From Minisyncoccota bacterium (GTDB taxonomy: Bacteria > Patescibacteriota > Minisyncoccia > Phycocordibacterales > JAQTLZ01): DNA of 64,000 bases. How positions within the stretch are numbered: position 1 is the first letter of the stretch; each line of letters opens with the position of its first letter. This document shows, in pieces, positions 1 through 53,337 of the stretch. The position numbers were made by a program, and so were the translations under genes. The stretch is taken from contig JAQTSY010000002.1 in the NCBI GenBank assembly GCA_028711065.1, positions 8,263 through 72,262 on the forward strand. The letters are read 5' to 3'. The notes beneath the pieces were generated by a model. It made no database searches. It was not told the DNA's origin and saw only the letters and a list, made by a program, of their open reading frames with translations.

Positions 1-726
1 ATTTCCCTGTACAAATGCCGGTCCCGGATTTCTCCCAACCGCTCCCCACGAATGGGCGTAGGAAATATCGTAGTTGAAGGAAATCGGTTTCGAGTTGAGG
101 GAGAGTCCGGTATTTTGAGAACCGGAAAATCCAACCCAACTAAACCATCCGCCTTCTGGCGCTTTACTCCCGAGCGGTTCGAATTCTCGGATTTTTACAT
201 ACGGAACGAACTGCTTGATTTTCATACCGACCATGTCGACTTTCAAATCGGCGGCGAAGAGATCGTTGTCGATTCTTTTCACTCCGCCGTTTGGCCCTTC
301 GAGATTGAATTCGCTCACCGTGACATTTGTCTTCACCCAGCCTTTCCAGGTGTTGACCCATCCGGCGTAGAAATCTATCTCGTCGGCGAAATTTTCTCCG
401 TAGTGACCCTTGAGGTCGAGTTCTACAGAATTCCAAGTGCCGACGTAGACGCTTCCCAGATTGGTCTGGTAGGCGGCGGAGAAATCTACCACTCCGATCG
501 GCGCCTTGGTCAGGGTCACGCCGACTGCTGTCGTGTATTCAGAGAGAAGTGAAGTTTTGAGACTGAAACTCAAGCGACTCTCTTTCTTCTCTGTCTCCGG
601 TGGCTTTGGCCTTTCCGATTCGGTCAGATCGGGCACTCTTTCTGGAGCCAGCTCGATCTTTGGCGCTTCCGCTCCCCACATGAGAGCCGGGAAGAGCGCC
701 ATTACAGCAACAAACATTCTGCGCAT
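1..726 (-). CDS. partial secreted beta-rich protein (signal peptide MRRMFVAVMALFPALMWGAEA); runs off window start; putative outer-membrane-like protein, foreign-looking
   Basis: Open minus-strand frame from ATG (724-726) to position 1 with no stop. GGAGGG Shine-Dalgarno at 735-740, 8 nt upstream. Local GC above window average. Absent from ORF track because no in-window stop. Confidence 0.45.
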   Translation of the reverse strand, partial: MRRMFVAVMALFPALMWGAEAPKIELAPERVPDLTESERPKPPETEKKESRLSFSLKTSLLSEYTTAVGVTLTKAPIGVVDFSAAYQTNLGSVYVGTWNSVELDLKGHYGENFADEIDFYAGWVNTWKGWVKTNVTVSEFNLEGPNGGVKRIDNDLFAADLKVDMVGMKIKQFVPYVKIREFEPLGSKAPEGGWFSWVGFSGSQNTGLSLNSKPISFNYDISYAHSWGAVGRNPGPAFVQGN

Positions 727-871
727 GATCAATTCCCTCCGTTTTGAGGCCTTTAAACCTCGGTTTATGTTTCAATCAGACTACCCGATGAAGAGGATAG
801 CATCGATTGAATGAGTGGCACATACCACCTTATGGTGCTATACTACACCATATAGAAATAATCAAAAATAT

Positions 872-1627
872 ATGTCTTATACTGATCTCTTTTCGAAACT
901 TGATCTTTCAAAAAATGAATCAAAGATTTATGAGAGCCTTCTTATCGAGGGCGAATCGCCAATCGGGCACATTGCTACAAAATCGAATATCAATAGAAGG
1001 AATGTCTATGATTCGATGAATCGTCTTATTGAAAAAGGGCTGGTATTTGAGATCTTGCAGAAAAATGAAAATCGCTACAAGGCAGTAGACCCGCGAAAGC
1101 TCATGGAAGTGCTTAAAGAAAAAGAAACTGAACTTCAAAAAGTCATGCCGGACTTGGAGGAACTTTATAACGGCAAGCCTCATGAAGAAGATGTCTATGT
1201 GTATCGAGGCATTGAGGGTTGGAAAAATTTTATGCGCGATATTTTACGAATTGGACAGGATGCATATGTTATCGGAGGGAAAGGTGCATGGGCAGATCCG
1301 AAAATAGCAAATTTCCTGAAAGAGTTTCTCAAAGAAGCAGACAAGAAGGGTTTAAAGACCCATGCTCTGTATGATATTGAGATTCAAAAAACAAATCACC
1401 CAATTTTATCTCTCATCAATCGCGAACACAGATTTCTTCCTGAAGGATTTTCTTCTCCTTCAACGGTTACCGTTTTTGGAAATCAGGTAGTTGTGCAATC
1501 TGGTTTTAAAATTGGGCAGATTAATGAGAATGCTACTTGCACTGTTATTGTGAATGAATTTATCGCCGAGACTTTTCGGACCTGGTTTAAATTTATGTGG
1601 GAGGCGAGTAAAATCTCTGACAAATAG
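872..1627 (+). CDS. TrmB-family HTH transcriptional regulator
   Basis: N-terminus MSYTDLFSKLDLSKNESKIYESLLIEGESPIGHIATKSNINRRNVYDSMNRLIEKGLV matches the TrmB wHTH domain. Start moved to second ATG after a TATACT -10-like hexamer at 838-843. Confidence 0.6.
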   Translation: MSYTDLFSKLDLSKNESKIYESLLIEGESPIGHIATKSNINRRNVYDSMNRLIEKGLVFEILQKNENRYKAVDPRKLMEVLKEKETELQKVMPDLEELYNGKPHEEDVYVYRGIEGWKNFMRDILRIGQDAYVIGGKGAWADPKIANFLKEFLKEADKKGLKTHALYDIEIQKTNHPILSLINREHRFLPEGFSSPSTVTVFGNQVVVQSGFKIGQINENATCTVIVNEFIAETFRTWFKFMWEASKISDK

Positions 1628-2180: not shown

Positions 2181-2516
2181 ATGGTGGCGCGGGAACATGC
2201 TGTCCATTTGGAAAGCTTGTACACGTTTTGTTTTAAGCGAGGCAGAGAAGTACTCTGGTTTGATTTGATGGGGCTCGTTTGGTATGCCCTCAACTATCAG
2301 AGGTTTTGGGCGCTTCGTACGCAGGCTGAAAAAGAGGAGAAGCTATGCCTCGCGGTAAAATTGGTGGACAAAGAGGTTGCCGCCAGAAAGGAGTTTGAAG
2401 GCGCCCTCGCTGATTTTTGCGAGGAATGTGAAAGAGAGGGTTTGCAGGTCGATGGCAATTTGTCGCCGTTCGATCTCTGCCAATACGAAGTCGAGATACG
2501 CCGGCGGGGCAAATAA
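2181..2516 (+). CDS. hypothetical small protein in higher-GC islet
   Basis: AGGAGG Shine-Dalgarno 7 nt upstream of ATG (2162-2167). 111 aa, elevated GC. Confidence 0.4.
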   Translation: MVAREHAVHLESLYTFCFKRGREVLWFDLMGLVWYALNYQRFWALRTQAEKEEKLCLAVKLVDKEVAARKEFEGALADFCEECEREGLQVDGNLSPFDLCQYEVEIRRRGK

Positions 2517-2649: not shown

Positions 2650-2982
2650 ATGCACAAAGAAATGGATATACCCTCTCTTTTTAGGTTTTGTTCGAAGGGT
2701 GGGCGTGAGAAGGAGTTGGCACTTCTCAATGAAGCGCTTGAGATTGGCCGTTGTCACGAGTTTTACTCGGCAAAGGTGCTCGCCTGTGAGAGGGGAGGAA
2801 GATGCATACCGCGCAAGTATCTCTGGTGGAAGCGGGAAACTCGCAGTATGTTTCGGGAGCGTCTGAAAAGGCTCTGTGCGTGCTGCCAACGGCACGGGTT
2901 TTCTTTTCCCGACTCATTTGAACCTTCTTTTTTCTGCGGGCATAAAGAATTTCTGCCGGGCAAGCATAAGAGATCAGTATAG
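2650..2982 (+). CDS. hypothetical Cys-rich small protein in higher-GC islet
   Basis: GAGGG upstream of ATG. 110 aa with several Cys pairs. Followed by hairpin 3033-3058. Confidence 0.3.
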   Translation: MHKEMDIPSLFRFCSKGGREKELALLNEALEIGRCHEFYSAKVLACERGGRCIPRKYLWWKRETRSMFRERLKRLCACCQRHGFSFPDSFEPSFFCGHKEFLPGKHKRSV

Positions 2983-5332: not shown

Positions 5333-5523
5333 GGTGCGAAAGATTTCGCCTCCTTCTAGACTTTATACAGTGAGAGATTGCTTGTAGAACGGCTTAACAT
5401 AAGGGTTTTTGACAATTTGTCTCCTTTGAATATTCTAAGTCTTAATAAAAAAACGAAATCGTGAATAATGAATAAATGACTATAGCTTTATCATACAAGA
5501 TTTCGCTTTTTTGTCTATTAAAG

Positions 5524-5567: not shown

Positions 5568-6167
5568 CTATTTATCTGACTCTTTCGTCGGTTCGTAGAT
5601 TTTGTCTACCACTCCGTATTTTTTCGCCTCTTCTGCCGACATGAAATAGTCTCGGTCGACATCTTTTTCAACTTGGGCCAGAGCTTTCCCGGTATTTTTT
5701 GCGAGAATTCTGTTTAGATTCGCTCTTGTTTTCAAAATATGTTTTGCAGTGATTTCGATATCAGATGCGCGTCCTTCCGCTCCTCCCCATGGCTGGTGGA
5801 TCATTACTTCGGCATTTGGGAGCGCGAATCGTTTCCCTTTTGCTCCGGCAGAGAGAAGAACTGCTGCACCAGAAGCTGCCATTCCTACACAAACCGTCGA
5901 GACATCGGGCTTGATGTAGTTCATGGTATCAAGCATCGCGAGCGTTGCTGTGACAGAACCTCCGGGAGAGTTGATATAGAGCTGAACGTCTTTCTTCGGA
6001 TCTTCGGATTCGAGGAAGAGAAGCTGGGCAATGACGATATTTGCTACAGTATCTTCGATCGGCCCTCCGAGGAAAATAATACGCTCTTTAAGAAGTCGCG
6101 AATAAATATCATAGGCTCGCTCGCCCATTGAGGTTTTTTCGATGACTGTTGGGATGAGAATAGACAT
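5568..6167 (-). CDS. clpP: ATP-dependent Clp protease proteolytic subunit
   Basis: 199 aa; ...[10 protein letters not shown]...[17 protein letters not shown]...MIHQPWGG; Ser-His-Asp triad context. Confidence 0.93.
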
Positions 6168-6270
6168 AATCGGTAGTATTTATTGATAACAATGCCAGTA
6201 TAGCAAAAGCATTTTCCGATACAAGTTCGAGGTCTATTTTTTTATAACGAAATACGCTATGGTAGTAACC

Positions 6271-6966
6271 ATGCGACTCCACCGATTTTTCATTGAAAAA
6301 AAGCTCCAGGGGAAAGATACGATACGAATCCGAAATCGCGAGCTTCATCATCAGCTTAAGGATGTTTTCCGTTTTCAGATCGGGGCATCCGTGCTTCTCC
6401 TTGATAATTCCGGTTTTGAATTTGAAGCTGTGATCACCTCTTTTGAAGAGGGAAATTTGAATTTTAAAATTGTCGGGTCGGCAAAAGTCAAAAATATTCC
6501 AAAACGGGAAATTTATTTGTTTGCATCGCTCATCAAGAAAGACAAATTCGAATGGGTGCTTGAAAAGGGTACGGAAATCGGCGTGACTCATTTTATTCCG
6601 ATACTTTCGGAGAGGAGCGAGAAAAAATCTTTGAATATCGAGCGAGCGAAGAAAATTATTCAAGAGGCGTCCGAGCAGTCGGGGCGGGGAATTTTGCCGG
6701 AGCTTCACGAAGTGATGAAATTGGAGAGCGCTCTTTCGTCCACGTCAGGAGAAATCATCGCCTTCGATTTTTCAGGAATTCCTTTTAGAGATTTTAAATT
6801 GCAAGGTGATATTTTTAAAATATTTATAGGTCCAGAAGGAGGCTGGAGCGAGAGGGAATTGAAGCTGTTTCGAGACAAAAAGGCTTCCATCCTTTCTCTT
6901 GGTGAGCAGGTGCTTCGAGCCGAAACGGCCTCTTTGGCTGTTTCGGCCCTTCTCCTTCTTGTTTAA
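6271..6966 (+). CDS. rsmE: 16S rRNA (uracil1498-N3)-methyltransferase RsmE
   Basis: MRLHRFF... N-terminus and C-terminal SPOUT motif IFIGPEGGWSERELKLF...ILSLGEQVLRAETASLAVSALL. Start set to second ATG. Confidence 0.8.
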   Translation: MRLHRFFIEKKLQGKDTIRIRNRELHHQLKDVFRFQIGASVLLLDNSGFEFEAVITSFEEGNLNFKIVGSAKVKNIPKREIYLFASLIKKDKFEWVLEKGTEIGVTHFIPILSERSEKKSLNIERAKKIIQEASEQSGRGILPELHEVMKLESALSSTSGEIIAFDFSGIPFRDFKLQGDIFKIFIGPEGGWSERELKLFRDKKASILSLGEQVLRAETASLAVSALLLLV

Positions 6967-8627: not shown

Positions 8628-9227
8628 ATGGAAATTAATAAAAAAAAGTATCTGCTTCTCGTAATCATTCTCGTTATCGCCGGATCTATTTTTTGGTATG
8701 CTCGCACTAAGACGACTCAACCTGCAATAGTCAGTGAGAGTCCTACTCCTCTTGTTGATTCTTTGGCCACACCGACTCCCTCTGCGACAAATCTTTCAAC
8801 ACCAACCTCGACAACCATACCCTCACCTTCTCCAAAGATCACTCCTCCTCCAATAACCATAAGATACGGTACTAGTACTCCTCCCTCGGTTACTTTGAAA
8901 GTGAATGGTTCTCATATCCCCGAAGCTGTCTCTTATAATTCGACTAATACGATTTCTTGGAAAACAACAGGGAACATTTTTGGTTGCGTTCCTGGCGGAT
9001 ATTATGTCCCGCTTGCCGATGCTTCCAGTACGCTTTGGAGTCGCCAAGGCCAAATGCAGCCCTCTGGTGCAGAAGAATTTATCGCGAAGATGCTCTCTGG
9101 AACACCGCCCGCAACTGGATATAAATATTTTTCTCCTCTCGAGCTTAATATTACTTGTACGGGGTATAGCGTAGATGGTGCGACAGTTACTGTGAAAGAT
9201 GCTATCAGTATTCCGGTAAATGAATAA
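8628..9227 (+). CDS. membrane-anchored hypothetical protein (Ser/Thr/Pro-rich stalk)
   Basis: N-terminal TM anchor LLLVIILVIAGSIFWY; STP-rich region. Confidence 0.55.
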   Translation: MEINKKKYLLLVIILVIAGSIFWYARTKTTQPAIVSESPTPLVDSLATPTPSATNLSTPTSTTIPSPSPKITPPPITIRYGTSTPPSVTLKVNGSHIPEAVSYNSTNTISWKTTGNIFGCVPGGYYVPLADASSTLWSRQGQMQPSGAEEFIAKMLSGTPPATGYKYFSPLELNITCTGYSVDGATVTVKDAISIPVNE

Positions 9228-9260
9228 TCTTTTGTAGAAAAAATACAAGCAATTCAGCTC

Positions 9261-9839
9261 ATGAAAAAAACTGAAATCAAAAAGAAATCATCCGTAAAGG
9301 TAAAAGCGAAAAATCCTTCGCAAGCTGTAAAGAAAAATGCAAAGATTCCTGCGAATCCTAAGGTGCAAAAATTTTCACCCGCGGTCACGCATGTTTGGTC
9401 AATCCTTTGCCGTTCTTCCAATATTGACCCGCAGACCAATAACATAAGCCTCTCGAATGTGATTGAGAGAGTTACTCTGAAAAGAGATCCAAAATTGGTC
9501 CAATATGATGGGGGACTTTCTTCGGAGATAAAACCGGATGTTGTGATTGGTATTCCACTTGAAATTGTTTCTCTTTGGAGAAGGGATGTTTCCGGAGTGG
9601 AACTTAAAGCAGATGTCGCGGTCGATTTGTACGGTCCGAGTGGCGAAGTGATAAATACTTTTCCCTATAATTTTGAGATGAAAAACGAACATCGTCGTAT
9701 CCGCACCCGATTGCTTTTCGGTGAGATTCACACGAAGGGCGGAGGCGATCATTTCCTTGTTGTAAAAGTAAAAGAAATGGGCGAGCAGGATTTTCGTCCA
9801 GTCGCCCACATTCCTCTTGAAGTAGTTGTTCAGCAGTAA
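9261..9839 (+). CDS. hypothetical protein with Lys-rich N-terminus
   Basis: 192 aa ORF, no known motif. Confidence 0.5.
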   Translation: MKKTEIKKKSSVKVKAKNPSQAVKKNAKIPANPKVQKFSPAVTHVWSILCRSSNIDPQTNNISLSNVIERVTLKRDPKLVQYDGGLSSEIKPDVVIGIPLEIVSLWRRDVSGVELKADVAVDLYGPSGEVINTFPYNFEMKNEHRRIRTRLLFGEIHTKGGGDHFLVVKVKEMGEQDFRPVAHIPLEVVVQQ

Positions 9840-9870
9840 CTTTAATTTAAATCCGGTATACTTTTAACAT

Positions 9871-10677
9871 ATGAAAAACTTACAAAAAGGTTTCGTAGTC
9901 CCACTTTTAATAGCATTTATCGCGTTGTTGGCGATTGGCGGAGGTATTTATCTTTATTCAAAAAATACTAAAAATACTAATTCTTTGACGGTGAATACTG
10001 CACCTGAAAATAGTCCGAGTGGGGTATCTTCAAATACTACACCCAGCTCACTTGTTTCAGGTAATGCGATAAGTGATTACATTTTCAGCAATACAAAGCC
10101 ACAAAATCTAGTTGAGGTAAGATTATCCCACCATTCCATAGATATTGAGTCACCCTGGGGTTTAGAGAAAAGCTATAGAGGAAGCAGGGATAGTCTTGGC
10201 CAGTATACTTTCGTAAATGGTATAAAGATGACTGTGACTTTAAACAAACTTAGTCCGCAAGATGAACTCAAACAATCAGATTTTTCTCCCACTGAACTGG
10301 CTCAATTCAATTCGCTCTTCCAGTTCATAGGTTCTAAAATTGAGCCAAATTTTTCCAGTTATGAATTTCAAAAATTTTTACACGGGACAAATCAGCAGGT
10401 AATTGATGAAGCCACAACACAAGAAGATAAAACTGGGTATTCAAAAGTTTTAGTTCTGAAAAACATCACAGCTTTTTTTGGTTCTAGTACTCCTGTGTAT
10501 CAATTTGCAAATAAAAATGGAAAGGGATTTGTGTATGTGAAGTCGGACACGACTGTCCCAAGCGGTGTAGATTTTTGGGGTCCAAATGGGTGGAGATATA
10601 CTTTTATGCTTCCAGCAAAACAAAATATATCAAAAGGAGATGTTGATGCTTTGATTCAATCGATCAAGAGTCTTTAA
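9871..10677 (+). CDS. membrane-anchored hypothetical protein
   Basis: N-terminal TM anchor GFVVPLLIAFIALLAIGGGIYLY. Confidence 0.55.
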   Translation: MKNLQKGFVVPLLIAFIALLAIGGGIYLYSKNTKNTNSLTVNTAPENSPSGVSSNTTPSSLVSGNAISDYIFSNTKPQNLVEVRLSHHSIDIESPWGLEKSYRGSRDSLGQYTFVNGIKMTVTLNKLSPQDELKQSDFSPTELAQFNSLFQFIGSKIEPNFSSYEFQKFLHGTNQQVIDEATTQEDKTGYSKVLVLKNITAFFGSSTPVYQFANKNGKGFVYVKSDTTVPSGVDFWGPNGWRYTFMLPAKQNISKGDVDALIQSIKSL

Positions 10678-10691
10678 TATAAATATAGAAA

Positions 10692-11756
10692 CTATTTCTT
10701 CTCCTCGTCTTCGAGAAATGCGATGACTTTTTCGTTCATGAGGAGCATTGTCACATAGGCTCGGACTCGTTCCGGCTCGACATGCTGATAGTGTTCCATG
10801 AGAGCTTTTGATTCCTCATCAACCTCCTCTTTTGTTGGAATAATTTTTTCTTTGCGAGCAATTTCACTCAAGATGAGTTCTGTCTTCGCGTGATTTTCCG
10901 CACTCGGCCTCCATTCTTTTGCGATTCCCTCTTCTGTTTTCTTGATGTGTTTCAGATAATCGGGGAATGAAAGTCCTGCATGAGCGAGCTCGTCTTCAAA
11001 TCGCGCTTTCATCCGGTCGAGCTCACTTTTGACGAGAATTTCCGGCAAGTCAATTTTTGTGTTTTCAAGGAGAGCGTCGATGATCTGTGATCGGCGCTTG
11101 TCTTTTGCTTTCTGTTTTTTCTCCTCTTCGAGATTCTTTTTCGCTTTTGCTCTGAAGTCTGCAACATTTTCGAACTCGCCGAGTTTCTTTACAAATTCGT
11201 CATTGAATTCTGGCAAAGTGTGCTCGTGTTTTGAATGGTCTTCGGTTTCTCCTTCTTTGTGAGTGCCGTTCCCGTGTTTCATATGGAGTTTGCGGACCTC
11301 CTCGATGACGTCATCAATATCTTTTTCAGTAACTTCAATCTTATCCTCCTTCTTTTTCATCTCCTTGTCGGCAATCTTTTTGTAGTCGCCTATGACAATT
11401 TCTGGAATGACAGTTGCTTTGATCTTGAAACCAGCATCAGAGCCTGGAGCAATTTTGGTGAGGATAACTTCTGGTTTGCCAATGACTTCAAGTTTGTGTT
11501 CATCAACGATACTGACATATTCATGCTGGAGAGCGATTTCCGCCGCTTCTTCAAGAATGGAAACTTCACCAAGCTTTGAAACGAGGACGGTTTCTGGTAC
11601 ATGTCCTTGTCTGAAGCCGTCGAGTTTTATGTTTTTACTCAAATCTGCGAGCGCCTCCTTTCTGTGGATTAGGAGTACTTCAGCAGGGATTTCTCCCTCA
11701 ATCTCCACTATCGAGTGGGGAAGTTTGGTGATTTTTATATTTTTCGTATGTGTCAT
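10692..11756 (-). CDS. tig: trigger factor (short form, apparently lacking the PPIase domain)
   Basis: Ribosome-binding signature GFRQGHVP; domain layout of TF N- and C-terminal regions; 354 aa versus ~430 typical. Confidence 0.7.
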   Translation of the reverse strand: MTHTKNIKITKLPHSIVEIEGEIPAEVLLIHRKEALADLSKNIKLDGFRQGHVPETVLVSKLGEVSILEEAAEIALQHEYVSIVDEHKLEVIGKPEVILTKIAPGSDAGFKIKATVIPEIVIGDYKKIADKEMKKKEDKIEVTEKDIDDVIEEVRKLHMKHGNGTHKEGETEDHSKHEHTLPEFNDEFVKKLGEFENVADFRAKAKKNLEEEKKQKAKDKRRSQIIDALLENTKIDLPEILVKSELDRMKARFEDELAHAGLSFPDYLKHIKKTEEGIAKEWRPSAENHAKTELILSEIARKEKIIPTKEEVDEESKALMEHYQHVEPERVRAYVTMLLMNEKVIAFLEDEEKK

Positions 11757-11818
11757 AGTTCGCTAGTGTAGCCGTTAATTTGGATTTTGTCGAATCCCGT
11801 AGTAAGATTCTTGTCTAT

Positions 11819-13189
11819 ATGGAAAGGATTGAGAATTTTCTCTCTCGGCACGGATGGATCACGCTTCTCGTGCTTAGTCTCGTGAGCCACTTCACGCTTT
11901 TCGGCTATCCGAAAGAAGTTGTGTTCGACGAGGTGCATTTTGGAAAGTTCGCGACGGATTATTTCACCGGAAATTTCTTTTTTGATCTTCATCCTCCTTT
12001 GGCGAAGCTCCTCATCACTTTTTTTGGCTGGATCGGGGGTTATCAGCCGGGTTTTAGTTTCGCATCGATCGGCCAGAATTTTCCCGATTCAAGTTATCTG
12101 TGGCTCCGACTCTTGCCTGTCATTGCTGGAGTGCTTTTGCCGATCATCATTTATTTTCTCTGTCTCAAACTACACTTTTCTAAAACAGCCTCATTCGTCG
12201 CGGGACTTCTCATTATCCTAGAAAATTCGCTCTTGGTTCAGTCTCGATTTATTCTTCTCGACAGCTTACTCTTGCTTTTTGGGTTCGGCGGGATTTTGCT
12301 ATCGATCATTGCTCGGGAGAGAAAACTTATGTGGCTTTCCTTTCTTTCCGGAGCCAGCCTTGCCTGCGCCTTTTCCATAAAATGGACTGGACTTTCTTTT
12401 CTCGGCTTGGTAATTCTTTGGGAGCTCTGGAACGGAATTCGAAATAAAGTTTCACTTAAGGGGTTGATAATCAAGGTGGTTTCTTTTTGCATCATTCCGG
12501 TACTTCTCTATATGGCTATTTTTGAAGTTCATTTTCTTCTTCTGCCGAAATCCGGCACGGGAGATGCTTTCTTGACTACGGCTTTTCAGGGGACACTTGC
12601 CGGAAGTCAATATGCAGGAAAAGAACCTGCGCCCAGTTTTATTTCAAAGTTTCTTGAGCTCAACAAGGTGATGTATACAGCCAATTCTCCGTCTCTCACG
12701 CACCCTTACGGAAGCAAGTGGTGGACGTGGCCCCTCATGCTTCGCCCTATCTATTATTGGAACCACGCGGGAGATGTTCCCGGCACTGAAGCAAAAATTT
12801 ATCTCATCGGGAATCCAGTTTTGTATTGGGGAGGGCTTTTATCTGTATGGCTTTTGTTTTGTTCCGTCCTGCTTCATTTTAGGAAATACAAGCCGAAGCT
12901 TGAAATTATGGCTTTTCTTTCTGTTGGATACCTTGTAAATCTTTTGCCGTTTATGTTTATCGCCAGAGTGATGTTTTTATATCACTATTTTACAGCGCTT
13001 ATCTTCTCAATTCTCATTATGGTATTTCTCATTGATTCGATCGAAAATCGCAAGACAAGATATACCCTTTTCATTCTTCTCGTCGCACTGTCACTTGTCC
13101 TTTTTCTCTTTTTTGTACCACTCACTTATGGCATTCCACTTTCGGAACATGGGCAAGCGCTTCGCTTCTGGTTTAATTCATGGAGATGA
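11819..13189 (+). CDS. protein O-mannosyltransferase-like glycosyltransferase (PMT / GT39 family)
   Basis: Multi-TM; loop-1 motif DEVHFGKFATDYFTGNFFFDLHPPLAKLLI typical of PMT/GT-C. Alternative start at 11780. Confidence 0.8.
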   Translation: MERIENFLSRHGWITLLVLSLVSHFTLFGYPKEVVFDEVHFGKFATDYFTGNFFFDLHPPLAKLLITFFGWIGGYQPGFSFASIGQNFPDSSYLWLRLLPVIAGVLLPIIIYFLCLKLHFSKTASFVAGLLIILENSLLVQSRFILLDSLLLLFGFGGILLSIIARERKLMWLSFLSGASLACAFSIKWTGLSFLGLVILWELWNGIRNKVSLKGLIIKVVSFCIIPVLLYMAIFEVHFLLLPKSGTGDAFLTTAFQGTLAGSQYAGKEPAPSFISKFLELNKVMYTANSPSLTHPYGSKWWTWPLMLRPIYYWNHAGDVPGTEAKIYLIGNPVLYWGGLLSVWLLFCSVLLHFRKYKPKLEIMAFLSVGYLVNLLPFMFIARVMFLYHYFTALIFSILIMVFLIDSIENRKTRYTLFILLVALSLVLFLFFVPLTYGIPLSEHGQALRFWFNSWR

Positions 13190-13229
13190 AAAAATCCCGC
13201 GGAAGCGGAATTTTTTCATCTCCAATTTC

Positions 13230-13427
13230 TTAATTGATTCCCAAGCTCCCGTTTTGGATATAGTTTTGTCGCTCTTTAATTTTTGCTCGAAGGTATAAGA
13301 TTCCCCCGACAAGAATAATGATGAGAATGATAATAATCCCGATCATTCCGCCGATGGCTTTCTTTTTTGGTTTCGGGGTGTCCGTTTGTGGGTTTTGCGT
13401 TTCTTCCATAATTTTATTCGTCTTCAT
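13230..13427 (-). CDS. small single-TM membrane protein
   Basis: 65 aa, hydrophobic core GGMIGIIIILIIILVGGILYL. Start placed after the hppA terminator hairpin. Confidence 0.35.
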   Translation of the reverse strand: MKTNKIMEETQNPQTDTPKPKKKAIGGMIGIIIILIIILVGGILYLRAKIKERQNYIQNGSLGIN

Positions 13428-13436
13428 TCTACACAA

Positions 13437-13473
13437 AACCGCGACTGGTGAACAGTCGCGGTTTTGTACCAAA
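13437..13473 (-). terminator. Hairpin acaaaaccgcgactg-ttcac-cagtcgcggttttgt downstream of hppA
   Basis: 15-bp perfect stem immediately after hppA stop. Confidence 0.55.
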
Positions 13474-26155: not shown

Positions 26156-27484
26156 ATGAATTGTAAGGACTACAAAAAACTTTCGAGAAAAAAAGGGCAA
26201 GCGGTTATGATTGCTGTCGTATTCTTTATGCTTATCGCCGTAGTCATTGTCCTTGGTGTGACCGCTCCCGTCATCCGACAAATACAAATTGTTCGCGGAT
26301 TACAGCTTTCCCGCCAAAGTTATTTTGCGGCAGAAGCAGGAAGTGAAGATGCGTATTACAGGATTAAGAATAATCTTTCCACCTCATTTCCGGAGACGAT
26401 GACTATCGGAGAAGCAACAGCCAATATAACACTTGCGACGACGGGGGTGAATGAAGAGGAAATTACCTCTGTAGGAGACGCGTCGAATTATATTCGTAAA
26501 GTATTGAAAGATATAACAGTTACGAACGGTTTCTCTTTTAATTTCGGCGTTCAAACAGGCGTGGGGGGTCTTTACATGAAAAACAATTCAGTCGTTTTGG
26601 GAAATGTGTATTCAAACGGCATTATCAAAGGATTTAGTAATAATGTTATTGCAGGTTCTGCGGTAGCGGCGGGTGCTTCTGGATCTATAACCGATGTGCA
26701 TGCGACATCGAGTGTTTACTCTCATTCAATTGATCAGACCACTGTCGGAGGAGATGCCTATTATGCAGCAACTTCCACCCTGACGAATTCGACTGTCACA
26801 GGAGTGAAGCATCCAGGGAGCCCTGATCAACCCACGATCGCTTTTCCAATCAGTGACAGTCTTGTGAGTCAGTGGGAAAGCGATGCGGCTTCTGGCGGCA
26901 CCGTGAGCTGTACAAATGGGAGTTACACCATTACCTCAAGTGTGACTATTGGACCTAAAAAAATTCCTTGTAATTTGACAATAAGTGGCAATAACATAAC
27001 TGTCACTGTCACAGGGGCGCTGTGGGTTGTGGGGAATATCACAGTGAGCGGAAGCGGAGGAACTGGCGTACAAATGAAAGTCGCTGATTCAGTAGGGGAC
27101 AAGAGTGTTCCTATTATTGCCGAGGATTCTTCCAATCCGACAACGTCTGGGCAGATTTCAACTGATGGTAATTCAAATTTCTATGGCTCTACAGGAAATG
27201 CTGATTCATTTGTAATGTTTATTTCAATGAACAAAAGCTCTGAACAAGGAGGGAGTAATTTGGCTATTAATGTCATCAATGGCGCTGCGGGAAATCTTCT
27301 TATCTTTGCGCCTCATGGCGAAATCGAGCTCCAGAATAATGTTGTGCTTCGCGAAGTGACTGCTTATAAGCTCACCCTCATCAACAATACCGAAGTTATT
27401 TATTCTATCGGTCTTGCGCAATCGCTCTTTACCTCTGGTCCTGGGGGGACTTGGAAGATTAAAAAGTGGAGGGAGAGTTTCTAG
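26156..27484 (+). CDS. large minor pilin, PilX-like N-terminal segment (KKGQAVMIAVVFFMLIAVVIVLGV)
   Basis: PilX_N-like hydrophobic N-terminus, then long Gly/Ser/Thr/Asn-rich beta-rich domain. Confidence 0.6.
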   Translation: MNCKDYKKLSRKKGQAVMIAVVFFMLIAVVIVLGVTAPVIRQIQIVRGLQLSRQSYFAAEAGSEDAYYRIKNNLSTSFPETMTIGEATANITLATTGVNEEEITSVGDASNYIRKVLKDITVTNGFSFNFGVQTGVGGLYMKNNSVVLGNVYSNGIIKGFSNNVIAGSAVAAGASGSITDVHATSSVYSHSIDQTTVGGDAYYAATSTLTNSTVTGVKHPGSPDQPTIAFPISDSLVSQWESDAASGGTVSCTNGSYTITSSVTIGPKKIPCNLTISGNNITVTVTGALWVVGNITVSGSGGTGVQMKVADSVGDKSVPIIAEDSSNPTTSGQISTDGNSNFYGSTGNADSFVMFISMNKSSEQGGSNLAINVINGAAGNLLIFAPHGEIELQNNVVLREVTAYKLTLINNTEVIYSIGLAQSLFTSGPGGTWKIKKWRESF

Positions 27485-27513
27485 AAACGCCAGAAATTGT
27501 TTTTGAGACAGCA

Positions 27514-27540
27514 GAAAAAGCCCCCAGCGGGGCTTTTTCC
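27514..27540 (+). terminator. Hairpin aaaaagccccc-agc-gggggcttttt after pilus operon
   Basis: Perfect stem with A/T flanks. Confidence 0.65.
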
Positions 27541-27729
27541 TCATCCTCGGCCAAGCACTCCTTACAGGAGCTGTACACCTTTTGGATTTTCTTTCAGAAA
27601 ATCTCAAAAGGTCTTGCGGAGCGGGTTCCTGCCCGCTCCTCACTCGCCTCCGGACTGCCTCAAAAAGAATTTCTCTCGTTTCTAGTGGTTGTATGGGTAA
27701 AAAGTGGCGGAAATGCTACAATAGTTAAC

Positions 27730-28491
27730 ATGAAAAAAATTGTTATCGGGAACTGGAAAATGAACCCAGCTACTCTACTGGAAGCACGAAAGATTTTTTC
27801 AAAGGTAAAAAAGACCGCTTCGAGCTGTAAGAAAGTGCATACCGTTATTTGTCCCCCCTTTCTTTATCTCTCCGATCTAGCTTCAAAATCTTCGAAAGAG
27901 TCTCTAGCTCTCGGGGCGCAGGATACATCTTCTCTTGAATCTGTAGGTTCTTATACCGGCTTTCTTTCTCCTCTTATGGTTAAAAATATAGGAGCACAGT
28001 ACGTCATTATCGGTCATTCTGAACGCAGGCGGGAGGGCGAAACGGACGAAATGATTAATAAGAAGATACTCGCAAGCTTAAGCATCGGGCTTAAAGTGAT
28101 TTTCTGCGTGGGAGAGAAAGAGAGGGGACACGACGGACATTTTCTCGAATTTGTGAAGCAGCAGATCCATTTGGGACTTCAGGGAGTTTCTAAAAAATCT
28201 CTTCAGAATGTCCTCATTGCATATGAGCCCGTGTGGGCGATTGGAGCGGAAAATGCAATTTTGCCCCGAGACCTGCATCAGATGAAAATTTATATTCGGA
28301 AAGTGCTATCGGAATTTTTCGGTCCGAGCGCTGTCGTCAAAGTTCCCGTCATTTACGGAGGCACAGTCAATCCTGAAAATGTGGAGCTCCTTCTTCTCGC
28401 GGGAGAAGTGGATGGGTTTTTGGTAGGACGAGCGTCTCTCAATCCGAAAGATTTCAGCGCTATCTTAGAAGTTGCTAATGCGTCAAAATAA
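27730..28491 (+). CDS. tpiA: triosephosphate isomerase
   Basis: MKKIVIGNWKMN...IGHSERR...AYEPVWAIG...GGTV...LVGRASL canonical TIM motifs. The ORF-track N-terminal extension is rejected. Confidence 0.92.
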   Translation: MKKIVIGNWKMNPATLLEARKIFSKVKKTASSCKKVHTVICPPFLYLSDLASKSSKESLALGAQDTSSLESVGSYTGFLSPLMVKNIGAQYVIIGHSERRREGETDEMINKKILASLSIGLKVIFCVGEKERGHDGHFLEFVKQQIHLGLQGVSKKSLQNVLIAYEPVWAIGAENAILPRDLHQMKIYIRKVLSEFFGPSAVVKVPVIYGGTVNPENVELLLLAGEVDGFLVGRASLNPKDFSAILEVANASK

Positions 28492-33031: not shown

Positions 33032-33388
33032 ATGACACCACAAGCATATTTACAACAAATCAAAGCAAGCTCTCTTTCGGAGAGTACAAAAAAGGCAATA
33101 GAAAAACTTCTTTCTGCGCCGGATACAGCGACAACAGCTAAAATCCAAGAGCTTATCCAAGCTGATATTGATGAGAGTTTCAAAGCAGATGATCCGGCAA
33201 AAATGGATGATCCAGAGGTCATGAAGGTTTTTGCAGATACTGATGTGGAACTCAAAAAAGTCGAGGGCGATCTCGAATCAGGCTTGGAATTCATATCAAA
33301 AGAAATGGAGAAATTGGAAGCGGACGTGGCTCAACTCGACAAGATTGCCGATGCAAACAAACTTTCCCAAGTGAGAGCTTCTCTCTAA
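33032..33388 (+). CDS. small acidic hypothetical protein
   Basis: 118-aa ORF. Confidence 0.5.
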   Translation: MTPQAYLQQIKASSLSESTKKAIEKLLSAPDTATTAKIQELIQADIDESFKADDPAKMDDPEVMKVFADTDVELKKVEGDLESGLEFISKEMEKLEADVAQLDKIADANKLSQVRASL

Positions 33389-33485
33389 TTTTTTTCTCTC
33401 GTCTTAAATAAAAAAGCAGCCTTTGTAATGGGGCTTGCTTTTTTATTATTATGTGTTATTCTAGTTTTGAAAGGAGGTTTCGAAT

Positions 33486-33680
33486 ATGCGTGATCTTCTG
33501 TTCTTTTTCCAGATCCAGTGGGGAGTGTGCCACCTTCGAGCGCTTCTTCACAGAACGAGGATGATCCGTTTTCTTCATTGGTCGTATTGGCCATCGAATG
33601 CCAAGACCAAGAAGGCTCATGAAGAGTTACGCAGAGCGAATCGTCGCACTGCGAGGCAAATTCTCGAAGGCAAATGCTGA
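33486..33680 (+). CDS. possible small basic protein (64 aa) in higher-GC islet
   Basis: AGGAGG SD 9 nt upstream (33471-33476); own hairpin+T-run terminator at 33688-33722; composition odd, could instead be an ncRNA. Confidence 0.2.
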   Translation: MRDLLFFFQIQWGVCHLRALLHRTRMIRFLHWSYWPSNAKTKKAHEELRRANRRTARQILEGKC

Positions 33681-33723
33681 AGTGTATATGCTCACGGCCC
33701 ACTGGGGATCGTGAGTGTTTTTA

Positions 33724-34092
33724 TTATTTTATTTCTTCCTTCAACTTCTCTGCATTTCCGGCGAGATCTTTTTTATCGCCTTTTACTTTATCATTTGGAA
33801 ATACCCATACGTGAGCGTGTGGAACTTCGTCGCCTATTATTTTTGAAAGTATCCAATCAGTTCCGAACGTTTTTCTTTGCGCGAGAGCTACTTTTTTTAC
33901 GAGCTCAAAATATTCTCCTGCATTTGGTATATCCCATACCCAGCGGTAGTGTTTCTTGGGGATAACTTGTGTATGTCCTGGGGATTGGGGGTTGATATCT
34001 AAAAAGGCTAGAAAATCACTATCCTCATACACAATATGGGCGGGGATTTCTTTTTTCACAATTTTGCAAAATACACAATTTTTATCTTCCAT
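33724..34092 (-). CDS. HIT-family hydrolase-like protein (variant histidine triad HAHVW)
   Basis: CVFCKIV zinc motif, [17 protein letters not shown], triad region PHAHVWVFP with third His replaced by Trp. Confidence 0.8.
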
Positions 34093-35988: not shown

Positions 35989-36414
35989 ATGTTGATTCTC
36001 AGAGATTTTTTCCTTTTGGGCCTAGCCGGCCTTGGGATGGAAGTCGTATTCACCTGGTTCTTTGCAGCGAAGAGGAACCAGGCGAACGTCGTTCATCACC
36101 GGATGGCAATGGGTTACAGCCACCCGTATTTCATCGTGACGTATGGAACTGTCGCGCTTTTGTTCGCGTGGCAGGGCAATGCGATCTTTGAGTGGCATTG
36201 GATCGGGAGATATTTCTTTTTCACAGCATATGCATTCGTCCTCGAGACGTTGCAGAATCTGTGTCTAAGAGCGATCCATGGTCAAGGGCCTTGCGAAGAA
36301 GTGTATCGCAGGTCGGGGAAGGCACTTTTCGGCGGATTGGTCCGCTGGGACTTCCCATTTTACTTTGGCGGTGCGGGGTTTTTGTTCCAGCTCGCCTACC
36401 AGTCAATGCACTAG
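35989..36414 (+). CDS. hypothetical 4-TM membrane protein in high-GC islet
   Basis: 141 aa, aromatic-rich TM segments; -10 TATAAT at ~35953. Confidence 0.4.
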   Translation: MLILRDFFLLGLAGLGMEVVFTWFFAAKRNQANVVHHRMAMGYSHPYFIVTYGTVALLFAWQGNAIFEWHWIGRYFFFTAYAFVLETLQNLCLRAIHGQGPCEEVYRRSGKALFGGLVRWDFPFYFGGAGFLFQLAYQSMH

Positions 36415-47114: not shown

Positions 47115-47203
47115 AACGTCTCCAAAACTTGCTTTTTTCCCTCTACTTCGATACAGTAGTGGCTACTGTTTTCAAGCAGTTTTTTCTTTCCAAGATTCAC
47201 AGA

Positions 47204-47620
47204 ATGCCGACAATCAATCAATTAATCAAGCGAAAACGAGTTCCGCTCAAACGCAAGCCAAAAGCGGTAGCTTTGATGCGCTCTTTTAATGCTTTGAAGA
47301 ACCGACCAAAATTCCTCCCATCTCCATTCAAGCGAGGTGTCTGCACGAAAGTAACCACAAAGACTCCAAAGAAACCAAACTCTGCTATCCGAAAGATCGC
47401 TCGTGTACGACTTACCAATGGTCTCGAAGTTACTGCTTACATCCCAGGAATTGGCCACACTCTTCAGGAACACTCTGTAGTGCTTCTTCGAGGAGGACGA
47501 GTAAAAGATGTCGGACTTCGCTACACTATTGTACGAGGAGTTTTGGATGCGACCGGCGTAGAGAAGAGAATGAAAGGACGAAGTTCATACGGCGCTAAGC
47601 GGCCGAAGGCCGCAAAATAG
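47204..47620 (+). CDS. rpsL: 30S ribosomal protein S12
   Basis: [12 protein letters not shown]...[60 protein letters not shown]. Confidence 0.95.
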
Positions 47621-47713
47621 CTTCTCCAGCTTCATGGAGCTTCACGAGCTTTGAATTCAAAAGCTAAAGAAGCTACAGGAAGCTCTAAGAATCTTACGAA
47701 GCTAAACAAAACC

Positions 47714-48184
47714 ATGCGAAGAAAAATAAAAAACCGAAAAGTTGTTGGACCTGATATGGTATTCAATTCTCCACGCGTGGCGAAGTTTACCAATTACCTC
47801 ATGCTTAGCGGTGAAAAGAGCATTGCTCGCAAAGTTGTCCATGATACTTTTGAGTTAATCAAAGAAAAAGCAAAAGTAGCTGATCCTGTAGAATTTCTAG
47901 AATCTGCTCTTAAGAACACCACTCCTCTTATGGAAGTTCGCTCACGACGAGTCGGAGGCGCCAACTATCAAGTTCCCCGAGAAGTCCGGAAAGAAAGACA
48001 GCAAGCGCTTTCCATGAAATGGATTATCGAAGCTGCTCGAAGCAAGAAAGGAGCAAACATGCACAAGAAACTCGCTGATGAAATTATTGCAGCTTCTAAG
48101 AATGAAGGAGAGGCTGTGAAGAAGAAGGAGAATACTCATAAGATGGCAGAAGCAAACAAAGCATTCGCTCACTTCACCTGGTAG
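47714..48184 (+). CDS. rpsG: 30S ribosomal protein S7
   Basis: ...VAKFTNYLMLSGEKSIA...VRSRRVGGANYQVP...KMAEANKAFAHFTW. Confidence 0.93.
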   Translation: MRRKIKNRKVVGPDMVFNSPRVAKFTNYLMLSGEKSIARKVVHDTFELIKEKAKVADPVEFLESALKNTTPLMEVRSRRVGGANYQVPREVRKERQQALSMKWIIEAARSKKGANMHKKLADEIIAASKNEGEAVKKKENTHKMAEANKAFAHFTW

Positions 48185-48385: not shown

Positions 48386-48622
48386 TTACATCTGATGAAA
48401 GGGGATTTCTTTCTCGTTTCTGATTTCCTTGAAGGATTCGAGGCAGTATCCGTTCTCGAGGCTGGCGTACCAGCAACCACTCTCGGGAGGCCGGACGACT
48501 TCCAGGACCTTCATTCCCAACTTTGTTGCCGCCAGCTCGATATTTTCTGCCACGACAATCCCGAGTTGAGTGTGTGACTTCCGACCCGGATTCTGTTCGT
48601 CGTCCCGGGCGTGCTGTAGCAT
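48386..48622 (-). CDS. small VOC (glyoxalase-like) half-domain protein, foreign-looking
   Basis: AAGGAG SD 9 nt upstream; own terminator; sequence HTQLGIVVAENIELAATKLGMKVLEV...LENGYCLESF resembles a VOC beta-alpha-beta-beta-beta module; high GC. Confidence 0.35.
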   Translation of the reverse strand: MLQHARDDEQNPGRKSHTQLGIVVAENIELAATKLGMKVLEVVRPPESGCWYASLENGYCLESFKEIRNEKEIPFHQM

Positions 48623-48913
48623 GAAGAACATGAGCGCATCTCCTTGAAATGAGGTTAGACGGACACAATTTCGGCATTCTTCCCCTGTCTACTATATTAG
48701 CATATTTATGTCTAAAAGTCAATCTCTGTTTTGGCCCTCTCCGGCTTGATAATTTGGTCCCTTTGCCGTCTCATATTGTCGAGAAGCCCTGTTTCTTTTT
48801 GCATTTTTTTGAATTCCCAACTTTTTGGGTGAAATTCTTATACACTTCTCAATATGTCGAAATGATTGGATAATGCAGGGAAAGGTAACTATTATTCACT
48901 AATAAAAAACTCT

Positions 48914-49276
48914 ATGACAAATGAGAAAAAAGTTGAGTGGCTGCTCCGCATCGGAGTAGCGGGGGAGTTTGCAGGGCACGGCCTTCTTGCTGTGCAGGGG
49001 AAAGCAGATTGGATTGGCTGGATCAGTCAAATGATTCATGTCGATACCGCGACTGCGACGACACTGCTTCTTATTATCGGCATTACGGATGTCATTATGG
49101 CTATTATTGTTCTCGTAAAACCTATCCGCATTCTTCTCCTCTGGATGGCTCTTTGGGGTTTCTGGACAGCACTCCTTCGACCATTGGTGGGGCAGTCAGT
49201 ACTCGACTTTGTTGAACGTTCGGCAAATTGGGCTGCGCCTTTAGCTCTCTATTATTTCTATAGATCCCGACAATAA
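48914..49276 (+). CDS. DoxX-like small membrane protein
   Basis: WLLRIGVAGEFAGHGLLAV...TM helices typical of DoxX family; followed by terminator 49293-49325. Confidence 0.5.
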   Translation: MTNEKKVEWLLRIGVAGEFAGHGLLAVQGKADWIGWISQMIHVDTATATTLLLIIGITDVIMAIIVLVKPIRILLLWMALWGFWTALLRPLVGQSVLDFVERSANWAAPLALYYFYRSRQ

Positions 49277-49292
49277 ACCCTCATCCATAAAA

Positions 49293-49325
49293 AAGCAAAA
49301 CCGCCTCAGGGCGGTTTTGCTTTGC
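49293..49325 (+). terminator. Hairpin gcaaaaccgccc-tcag-ggcggttttgc
   Basis: 12-bp stem, T-rich tail. Confidence 0.6.
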
Positions 49326-49326
49326 T

Positions 49327-49355
49327 TGACAGTATACCCCCTGGGGGTATATGCT
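49327..49355 (+). promoter_or_regulatory. csoR-copA promoter (-35 TTGACA 49327-49332) with 17-bp perfect CsoR-type operator palindrome ATACCCCCTGGGGGTAT (49335-49351) in the spacer
   Basis: GC-rich pseudo-palindrome of the type bound by CsoR-family repressors, placed between -35 and -10. Confidence 0.6.
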
Positions 49356-49362
49356 TGTGTGT

Positions 49363-49626
49363 ATGACAAATACCAAACAAAAAATGGTTCGACGGCTCAA
49401 GATTATTGAGGGACAAGTGCGGGGGTTACAAGAAATGATCGAGAAAGGAAAATATTGTATCGATATCATCACCCAGACATCTGCGGTGAAGCAGGCGCTT
49501 TCGGGCGTAGAAGATACGCTTATGGAAAATCATTTGAACACGTGCGTAGTGCATCAGATGCAGAAAGGCAAAGAGGGCACTGCGGTCAAAGAAGTTTTGA
49601 AAGTGTATCGACTCAAACGCAAATAA
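49363..49626 (+). CDS. csoR: CsoR/RcnR-family metal-sensing transcriptional repressor
   Basis: [36 protein letters not shown]...ENHLNTCV with Cys-His-Cys ligand pattern. Confidence 0.85.
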
Positions 49627-49631
49627 AATAT

Positions 49632-51911: not shown

Positions 51912-51914
51912 TTT

Positions 51915-52940: not shown

Positions 52941-52953
52941 TAAACTTACAAAC

Positions 52954-53337
52954 ATGAAGGCAACTATTATTTCCATCATAATTTTCGTAGCTCTTATCGG
53001 AGGAGCCTTTCTTCTCACGAGAGGTGTTTCCAATACTCCAGTCGCAAACGCAAACAACGTAACTATAGTTGACGGAAAACAAATTATCGAAATTCATGCG
53101 AAAGGTGGATATCAGCCGAGAAAGAGTATTGCAAAAGCTGGCATTCCCACCATTCTTCGATTTGATACAAGCGGAACATTCGACTGTTCATCTTCTGTCC
53201 GAATCCCGAGTATGAATATCTCGAGACTTCTTCCGCAGACCGGCACAACAGATATTGATATAGGAAATCAGCAAGTGGCAACCCTTCGAGGGACTTGTGG
53301 AATGGGAATGTATCCATTTGAAGTGACATTTAACTAG
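52954..53337 (+). CDS. small membrane-anchored cupredoxin-like protein (putative)
   Basis: TM anchor IISIIIFVALIGGAFLL; C-terminal CSSS...TCGMGMYPFEVTF Cys/Met-rich motif; typical partner of the HMA-membrane protein in copper cassettes. Confidence 0.45.
   Translation: MKATIISIIIFVALIGGAFLLTRGVSNTPVANANNVTIVDGKQIIEIHAKGGYQPRKSIAKAGIPTILRFDTSGTFDCSSSVRIPSMNISRLLPQTGTTDIDIGNQQVATLRGTCGMGMYPFEVTFN

Follow-up and report, generated by a model that had tools for sequence, protein, structure and literature searches.

The gene that lies on the minus strand at positions 1–726 of the window (the whole stretch of 64,000 nucleotides that was analysed) is probably a resident, patchily distributed accessory gene of Parcubacteria-type CPR bacteria, neither a fresh insert nor an artefact. 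The gene (PHV93_00880 in NCBI, here called the barrel gene) starts with the ATG at 726–724, and its 3′ part crosses the window start. The window thus contains the first 242 codons of a signal-peptide-bearing protein of 293 amino acids with a predicted 12-stranded beta-barrel; the last 51 codons lie to the left of the window and were taken from an independent assembly (L001:107–988), which covers 262 bp on that side. The signal-peptide coding part (670–726, minus strand) specifies MRRMFVAVMALFPALMWGA before EAP and was judged to be Sec-like by inspection. It is followed by a Pro/Glu/Lys-rich linker of 30 residues, which extends to approximately residue 48 and is modelled with low confidence (pLDDT below 65 at residues 1–40). 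In the predicted structure the strands begin at residue 49, and the remainder of the protein past the signal peptide is all-beta, with 12 long strands and a pLDDT of 86.7, forming a closed antiparallel barrel with an even strand number. The polypeptide ends with an aromatic residue of the beta-signal type (…GIEFGWKF, in the closest orthologue …LNWKF), and the C-terminal residue is F or W in 27 of 39 members of the family. The first-pass annotation had described a secreted, beta-rich, outer-membrane-like protein, and the signal peptide (seen by inspection) and the all-beta model both agree with this. By its model the product is a Sec-exported, 12-stranded protein of the outer-membrane-channel type, and it would function as a channel.

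Relatives of the barrel protein are few and distant. Among 1.84 billion cluster representatives 58 were found, which are approximately 250 amino acids long and at most 36% identical. The best non-self homologue (58% identity) is from a second Pacebacteria metagenome-assembled genome (MAG), the next being at most 36% identical, and no homologue with more than 36% identity was found outside these two MAGs in searches of 1.84 and 5.8 billion sequences. A word-indexed protein search returned only the barrel protein itself, and one more orthologue when the family profile was used. Metagenome contigs profiled with the two orthologues yielded no relatives. The score with the Pfam family Gcw_chp (PF09694) is 22.1 bits for the partial protein and 21.7 bits for the complete one (P0001) versus a cut-off of 24, and with TIGR02001 (TorF) it is 15.6 bits versus a cut-off of 47.15; curated membership of TorF/Gcw_chp was therefore rejected. 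TIGR02001 is matched by 6 and PF09694 by 2 of 37 relatives at E<=0.01 (best TIGR02001 E=1.3e-7), and for one relative, P0053, a precomputed PF09694 match is on record. Judged from these sequence similarities, the protein is a divergent, superfamily-level relative of the TorF/Gcw_chp putative porins. It shares with them the length of about 250 amino acids past the signal peptide, the predicted barrel, the C-terminal aromatic residue and a weak but specific HMM similarity; it differs from them in its Pro/Glu/Lys-rich linker, in its occurrence in CPR genomes and in its pairing with a gene for a TrmB regulator. No solved structure is detectable by sequence for the TorF/Gcw_chp families, and we know of no member whose function has been tested. 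The homology search thus bore out the weak Gcw_chp/TorF similarity and failed to reveal a donor lineage, the best non-self match being to another Pacebacteria MAG.

In the model, the fold is nearest to that of small substrate-specific porins (e.g., KdgM, NanC, GalP). Like KdgM, NanC and VhGalP (and also Tsx, COG4313, FapF, PcoB and autotransporter beta-domains), the protein has a Sec signal peptide and a terminal Phe. However, sequence identity to channels of this type is only 5–11%, no match to the Pfam families of KdgM/NanC, Tsx or autotransporters was obtained at E<=1, and the profile of the barrel family found none among PDB sequences at the same threshold. The KdgM family is specific for sugar acids, of which the sugar-type regulator encoded next to the barrel gene is reminiscent. 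It should be noted that these channels are assembled by BAM in a true outer membrane, a structure not known from CPR cells.

The surprise voiced in the first-pass annotation at such a protein in a CPR organism is justified, the contig being labelled 'Candidatus Pacebacteria', whereas its suggestion of contamination or chimerism at the contig edge did not survive. The window edge is internal to a contig of 147,673 bp, on which the barrel gene continues past the window. The junction between the barrel gene and the neighbouring TrmB gene is 100% identical over 3.0–3.2 kb in two independent Logan assemblies from separate runs (SRR22315508 and SRR22315509; L001 and L002), and the gene order is matched in three other genomes. 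That an assembly chimera or a contaminant fragment was fused to the CPR contig, as the compositional jump near position 790 beside the window boundary might suggest, has therefore next to no probability.

With respect to composition, the barrel gene has a GC content of 0.518 and a GC3 of 0.587, as compared with a GC3 of 0.406 for the native genes (sd 0.044, maximum 0.491, n=50), which corresponds to z=4.1. Plain GC calculated over 300 bp is not distinctive, since about 20 stretches within native genes also reach approximately 0.5. Tetranucleotide distances deviate only weakly: region 1–790 is at the 95.6th percentile, hence marginally deviant, and the five other regions discussed below are between the 42nd and the 92nd. 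Of the higher GC that had been claimed for the gene, it is GC3 that discriminates, not plain GC. The second discriminating property is the leader. The gene is preceded by the Shine-Dalgarno (SD) sequence GGAGGG (735–740, minus strand), 8 nt 5′ of the ATG as annotated earlier, for which pairing with the 3′ end of 16S rRNA is predicted at −10.0 kcal/mol. Native leaders contain 3–11% G across positions −13 to −6 and have T at −1 in 69% of the cases; a value of −7 kcal/mol is reached by 2 of the 50 native genes, both with doubtful TTG starts, which confirms that native genes lack an SD. For comparison, −6 kcal/mol is reached by 12% of random positions. An SD precedes all seven GC3-rich genes versus 2 of 50 native ones (Fisher p=1.4e-7). 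Since GC3 and the leader discriminate and plain GC and k-mers do not, the signal resides in the third codon positions and the leader.

The same signature had been reported for five further places, and it is indeed found at all five, in six genes, which are ORFans. A 111-amino-acid Cys-rich protein is encoded at 2181–2516 (plus strand; SD AAGGAGG, GC3 0.58) and its 110-amino-acid paralogue at 2650–2982 (plus; SD −9.0 kcal/mol, GC3 0.53); the two proteins find each other with phmmer at E ~1e-6, and for the first there was no match in Pfam, NCBIfam or PHROG. The third, a putatively coding ORF of 64 codons (33486–33680, plus; SD AAAGGAGG, −12.8 kcal/mol, GC3 0.54), is flanked by two convergent native genes and has no Pfam, PHROG or Rfam match. 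Between recJ and rnhA there is a gene for a hydrophobic protein of 141 amino acids (35989–36414, plus; SD −7.3 kcal/mol, GC3 0.65), and between rpsG and a copper-resistance cluster one for a protein of 81 amino acids (48386–48631, minus; SD AAGGAG, −8.5 kcal/mol, GC3 0.67), which is followed by a terminator hairpin. The sixth (55789–56256, plus; SD AAGGAG, −12.2 kcal/mol) directly follows fusA, has the highest GC3 (0.70) and encodes a protein of 155 amino acids with a lipobox-like LLTGC, for which the homology search returned only the protein itself; the NCBI version (PHV93_01155) starts at an internal ATG and has 129 amino acids. For the five other than 33486–33680, GC3 z is 2.9–6.7. Rfam and tRNA scans of the whole window and a permissive Rfam scan of 33300–33800 revealed no credible RNA gene. 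A phage origin was discarded because no protein of these islets had a PHROG match, and common mobile-element borders were discarded because the islets share no repeats.

Such a pattern invites the interpretation, put forward in the first-pass annotation, that the barrel gene is one of several recent insertions from an SD-using, higher-GC donor, possibly a host, whose SD and GC3 have not yet been ameliorated. Indeed, the combination of odd GC3 and SD occurs in seven small genes scattered among native ones; genomic islets acquired by horizontal gene transfer likewise show atypical third positions and translation signals that look foreign, and they likewise lie in variable regions. Furthermore, L003, the locus of the second Pacebacteria MAG, lacks the pair at 2181–2982 at the syntenic position; SD-led, GC3-rich blocks are present in the variable rny-HU region of other Parcubacteria (e.g., L054, 10634–13444); and the superfamily of the barrel is otherwise found in diderms. 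For the barrel gene itself, however, recent transfer is quite improbable, and the claim was abandoned. Its 58% identical orthologue in L003 (P0059) is found in the same order, rny-HU-x-TrmB<->barrel, and an approximately 31% identical homologue has the same order in L004 on an 858-kb contig, as has the GTDB representative locus L026. The site is thus occupied in L003, L004/L005 and L026, which means that also distant genomes carry barrel homologues at the same position. Between the two orthologues dS is 1.65, comparable to that of the neighbouring genes (0.76–3.3), and dN/dS is 0.20, i.e., the gene is under purifying selection. Also at variance with recent transfer are the missing homologues above 36% identity outside the two Pacebacteria MAGs and the native composition of the partner TrmB gene. 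With respect to all the islets, there are no shared or flanking repeats, no integrase, no tRNA anywhere in the window, no phage families and no identifiable donor; for the barrel gene neither a donor nor a sign of mobility was found. In this it differs from typical islets, which the synteny and the purifying selection at dS ~1.6 underline.

The patchy distribution could also have arisen by an ancient transfer from a diderm to CPR bacteria, followed by spread via recombination at the rny-HU flank, with SD and GC3 as functionless, decaying relics. The 80 closest rny loci in an RNase Y scan of genome contigs are all from Parcubacteria/Patescibacteria MAGs, and the barrel gene is present in 1 of 80 GTDB-representative rny loci. 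The close relatives of L026, L042 and L077, have no barrel gene after HU, and in the rny tree the three lineages carrying the gene are scattered, so that occurrence is patchy at a single variable site, where repeated gain is as possible as repeated loss. The tree of the barrel family shows no single clade of members from CPR contexts; they are interspersed with non-CPR ones, and L087 (a non-CPR context of 60% GC) is nested inside the family. A capacity for DNA uptake is indicated by the ComEC and type IV pilus genes in the window, and three of the loci, L026, L090 and L091, have no SD before the barrel gene. That SD and GC3 are relics is nevertheless unlikely. A 6-nt SD would hardly outlast a dS of ~1.6 without selection, and its core is intact while the spacer has changed: in L003 the sequence is GGGGAGGG, with −11.7 kcal/mol. 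The two orthologues are equal in GC3 (0.587 in both versus 0.31–0.40 in most neighbours), although both may alternatively descend from an ancestor with very high GC and have decayed in parallel and incompletely. And even barrel homologues of merely ~30% identity have an SD. Of nine SD-poor contexts, six have an SD before the barrel gene, with energies between −8.3 and −12.2 kcal/mol, the exceptions being the three loci just named; the taxonomy of L006, L089, L091 and L092 is read from weak context alone. By comparison, −8 kcal/mol is reached by 2.2% of 1,234 genes from 83 CPR loci versus 4% of random positions, i.e., the lack of SD is clade-wide.

That the barrel gene is a resident one is in line with its partner. 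Divergently oriented to it is a gene (872–1627, plus strand) for a winged-helix regulator of the TrmB family, of the sugar-sensing type (Pfam PF01978, E=8e-16), which has native composition (GC3 0.37) and no SD; the pair was therefore not imported as a single foreign block. The divergent pairing of the two genes is also found in L003, L004/L005, L026 and L090. The intergenic region of 145 bp contains the palindrome TATGGTG-CTATACTA-CACCATA (831–852), which overlaps a TG-extended −10-like TATACT of the TrmB gene and which is the intergenic block best conserved between the window and L003. The palindrome is probably the TrmB operator, and via this shared site the regulator would control the barrel gene in response to a sugar-like ligand. 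A short leader hairpin of 4–5 bp (GAGG-N8-CCUC, 744–763), whose CCUC could instead pair with the SD, has a GAGGU/ACCUC counterpart at the equivalent position in L003. Sequestration of the SD by this hairpin was considered and dropped because it has merely 4–5 bp and the prediction is inconsistent, the predicted folds of the two orthologues being different.

Since both orthologues have kept SD and GC3 although most of their synonymous sites have been replaced, the SD appears to be under selection and functionally used. It would then have to be read by ribosomes that retain an anti-SD, and would mark gene-specific translational control rather than be the fingerprint of a donor. A precedent may be seen in the Flavobacteriia, in which rpsU reportedly keeps an SD, the anti-SD being present but sequestered. 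There, too, SD sequences are nearly absent genome-wide and a few genes have a strong, conserved one, which implies a regulatory role, although phylum and genes differ from the CPR case considered here. In Parcubacteria an anti-SD motif was detected in just 48% (Tsurumaki et al., 2022; PMC9297842). A 16S 3′ end was sought in the 1.2 Mb of loci that were analysed, and none was present in them.

To our knowledge, neither an outer membrane nor BAM machinery is to be expected in CPR cells, which leaves a BAM-type barrel without an obvious place in the cell. No match to Omp85/POTRA, Lpt or Lol was obtained with the proteins scanned from the window (64 kb of genome). It is conceivable, if rather doubtful, that the barrel is aimed at the host, as a porin that a monoderm CPR epibiont exports and installs in the outer membrane of its diderm host as a nutrient channel; a more radical version is that host-type, SD-reading ribosomes translate an SD-led, GC3-rich set of genes for interaction with the host, in a genome that otherwise does not depend on SD. 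Known CPR cell biology accounts for none of three features that are conserved in CPR contexts, namely the beta-signal, the SD and the GC3.

CPR/Patescibacteria are regarded as episymbionts with a single membrane, and the way in which they exploit their hosts is largely obscure. A gene for an outer-membrane-type channel that is under selection in these organisms is therefore a testable lead, either to an unrecognised outer layer in part of the clade or to a pore for the host membrane. The few strong, conserved SD sites in a clade otherwise poor in them offer a handle on translation initiation in CPR bacteria and on the reading of SD sequences by their ribosomes. And for the annotation of these genomes it should be considered that an SD together with a high GC3 is by itself no proof of recent transfer or of contamination.

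About 57 genes were annotated in the window (among them rny, clpP, rsmE, tig, H+-PPase, nusA, pilB/pilC, tpiA, pgk, recJ, rnhA, comEC, sodA, rpsL, rpsG and fusA), and native GC3 is 0.406 ± 0.044 and at most 0.491 (n = 50 window genes). Native leaders are A/T-rich (GC 0.29) and poor in G (3–11% at −13 to −6, nearly absent at −8 to −6), and T is found at −1 in 69% of the starts of 35 confident window genes, a context that suggests a non-Shine-Dalgarno (non-SD) initiation signal. A duplex energy of −7 kcal/mol with the 16S 3′ end is attained by two of the 50 native genes, both with doubtful TTG starts; in a random-position control 12% attain −6 kcal/mol. Set apart from these are seven genes, at 1–726 (−; the barrel gene), 2181–2516 (+), 2650–2982 (+), 33486–33680 (+), 35989–36414 (+), 48386–48631 (−) and 55789–56256 (+). 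All seven start with ATG, are preceded at the usual distance by an SD (−7.3 to −12.8 kcal/mol) and have a GC3 of 0.53–0.70 (Fisher p = 1.4e-7 for the association of SD with the GC3-rich class). The first-pass annotation had described this contrast with the native genes and its recurrence along the window, and an SD-led, GC3-rich gene is indeed present at every site it listed; the contrast resides in GC3 and SD energy, however, and is much weaker in plain GC and tetranucleotide frequencies, which discriminate the seven genes far less well.

The SD-poor background is a clade trait. Scanning GTDB species representatives with RNase Y yielded 80 loci, all from Parcubacteria-type MAGs (Taylor-, Nomura- and Paceibacterota, and "Patescibacteria group"). 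In these and other CPR loci an SD of −8 kcal/mol or below precedes 2.2% of 1,234 genes, as against 4% of random positions, in keeping with Tsurumaki et al. (2022; PMC9297842), who could detect the anti-SD motif in no more than 48% of Parcubacteria. As a separate observation, 68 of 79 Parcubacteria loci (L007–L086; window 5333–5360, −) have a small stem-loop that ends 0–2 nt 5′ of the rny start codon and whose stem varies between loci in a compensatory way (GCGAAT/ATTCGC, GCGGAT/ATCCGC, GCGGT/ACCGC, GGGCG/CGCCC). The window's stem-loop is preceded by GAAGGAGG, and GGAG/GAGG occurs at −32 to −13 in 19/79 rny leaders versus 69/1157 other genes (p = 7e-7, uncorrected for phylogeny). The rny leader may be structured and autoregulatory, with an SD inside it, and rny may be a second SD-using gene of the clade.

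The barrel gene begins on the minus strand with ATG at 726–724, 8 nt downstream of GGAGGG (740–735), and is open at the window start, with 242 codons inside. Contig-edge chimerism or contamination had been considered for it. Logan assemblies of two separate runs, L001 (SRR22315508) and L002 (SRR22315509), both contain the gene and its right-hand neighbors, at 100% identity to the window over 3.2 kb and 3.0 kb, respectively, and the NCBI entry (PHV93_00880, hypothetical protein, "Candidatus Pacebacteria bacterium" MAG) lies on a contig of 147,673 bp. The window edge therefore lies inside a contig, and the 780–880 junction is no mis-join. The gene runs on beyond the window: with the 3′ end read from L001 the protein has 293 aa (C-terminus ...GIEFGWKF), and a hairpin follows.

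The earlier description of the product as an outer-membrane-like secreted beta protein is borne out. An exhaustive HMMER search found 58 relatives, most of them signal-peptide-bearing proteins of about 250 aa at 26–36% identity, and a confident AlphaFold2 model from their alignment (pLDDT 86.7, pTM 0.79) shows a disordered Pro/Glu/Lys-rich linker followed by twelve long beta-strands. The top 50 Foldseek matches are all Gram-negative outer-membrane barrels, and 27 of 39 family members have F or W as their last residue, where a beta-signal usually sits. A sequence search for a related solved structure detected none; among sequence families only the TorF/Gcw_chp putative porins show similarity, slightly under curated thresholds. 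The product is an exported barrel with 12 strands, of the class of outer-membrane channels, and its fold and superfamily are already known.

Recent insertion had also been proposed, and on this question comparison between genomes is decisive. In a second Pacebacteria MAG (GCA_028710915.1) a profile search detected P0059, which shares 58% identity with the barrel protein and whose locus (L003) has the window's gene order: rny, HU, a small gene, TrmB, and the barrel gene divergent from TrmB (identities of rny 96%, HU 93%, TrmB 80%). Between the two loci the barrel gene has a dS of 1.65 and a dN/dS of 0.20, compared with 0.76–3.3 and 0.035–0.064 for its neighbors; it has therefore been inherited together with them under purifying selection, yet evolves faster. 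The signature was inherited too: the L003 orthologue has the same GC3 (0.587) and is preceded by the SD GGGGAGGG (−11.7 kcal/mol), and in the intergenic alignment the SD core is conserved while the spacer has diverged. Most genes around it have a GC3 of 0.31–0.44 and no SD. The exceptions, a gene for 415 aa that matches radical SAM faintly (9080–10327; GC3 0.66, AAAGGAGG ahead of the start) and a sigma-70 region-4 protein (5808–6482; GC3 0.52), indicate that the SD/GC3 minority class is present in this MAG too.

More distantly, P0061 (31% identical) lies on an 858-kb contig (L004) in the order nusA-tig-rsmE-clpP-rny-HU-TrmB<->barrel, matching the window, and is preceded by AAGGAGG (−12.2 kcal/mol) amid 16 neighbors without SD. 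The GTDB locus L026 is also rny-HU-TrmB<->barrel, and in L090 the TrmB<->barrel pair occurs in different surroundings. Homologues with an SD occur also in L006, L089 and L092, those without in L026, L090 and L091. Synteny, selection and independent assemblies exclude a recent one-off insert, contamination and chimerism as the source of the barrel gene. Its constant partner TrmB is native in composition and lacks an SD, so the pair was not delivered as one foreign block.

An old diderm origin followed by spread among CPR genomes is, nevertheless, quite possible. The barrel gene is present in only one of the 80 GTDB rny loci, whose (L026) close relatives lack it; carriers are dispersed across the rny tree; and a homologue from a clearly non-CPR, 60%-GC setting (L087) nests inside the family. 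The region around HU is variable and holds other SD-led, GC3-rich blocks. One example is L054, from a related MAG of the Parcubacteria, where five genes of one orientation, including CoaE-like and CoaD-like ones, are inserted between rny and TrmB/HU (10634–13444); a strong SD precedes three of them (−8.7, −11.3, −11.6 kcal/mol), and four have a raised GC3 of 0.52–0.65 (locus median 0.45). Here, in the same variable region, the block appears to be genuinely foreign and to bear SDs.

For the other six genes recent acquisition is plausible, with no donor that can be named. Their proteins have no match in Pfam, NCBIfam or PHROG, and no border repeats are common to the islets. Those at 2181–2516 and 2650–2982 are paralogues of each other and absent at the equivalent site in L003; 55789–56256, with the highest GC3, is an ORFan among 5.8 billion sequences. 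NCBI starts the latter at an internal ATG (129 aa, PHV93_01155). When it is started at an upstream ATG with an SD of −12.2 kcal/mol, the protein includes a signal peptide that is lipoprotein-like (LLTGC), and this 155-aa form seems preferable.

Elsewhere in the window, the str operon rpsL-rpsG-fusA is split: rpsG (47651–48184) is separated from fusA (53469–55622) by genes (48866–53337) for a membrane protein, a copper P-type ATPase that has an HMA domain, a DsbD_2+HMA protein and a cupredoxin-like protein. Each of these genes is native in composition and lacks an SD. Trigger factor (10692–11756) has only 354 aa, with matches to its N- and C-terminal Pfam domains and none to a PPIase domain between them; that of L004 is similarly short (353 aa). 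The longest ORFs of tpiA (27466–28491; 341 aa, TIM domain from residue 91) and rpsL (47129–47620; 163 aa, S12 domain from residue 61) have long N-terminal extensions with GTG/TTG starts that overlap upstream genes, and the true starts are probably internal. No tRNA genes and no Rfam families at gathering threshold were found in 1–64000.

The barrel gene is kept together with a TrmB-type regulator. The 145-bp intergenic region contains a conserved palindrome (831–852) overlapping a −10-like box, and a sugar-like ligand is probably the cue on which TrmB controls the two divergent promoters, the barrel being a putative small solute channel. CPR cells are regarded as having neither an outer membrane nor BAM, and no outer-membrane or BAM-type components were found among the window proteins scanned. 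The barrel's membrane could be an unrecognized outer layer, a host outer membrane after spontaneous insertion, or something stranger. The literature searched contains no description of this setting: a conserved, TrmB-paired barrel gene in Parcubacteria with a selected SD amid an SD-less clade. This SD is probably functional, because it was kept despite synonymous saturation; the ribosomes translating the mRNA must in that case carry an anti-SD, and the SD would be a gene-specific control within an otherwise SD-independent system.
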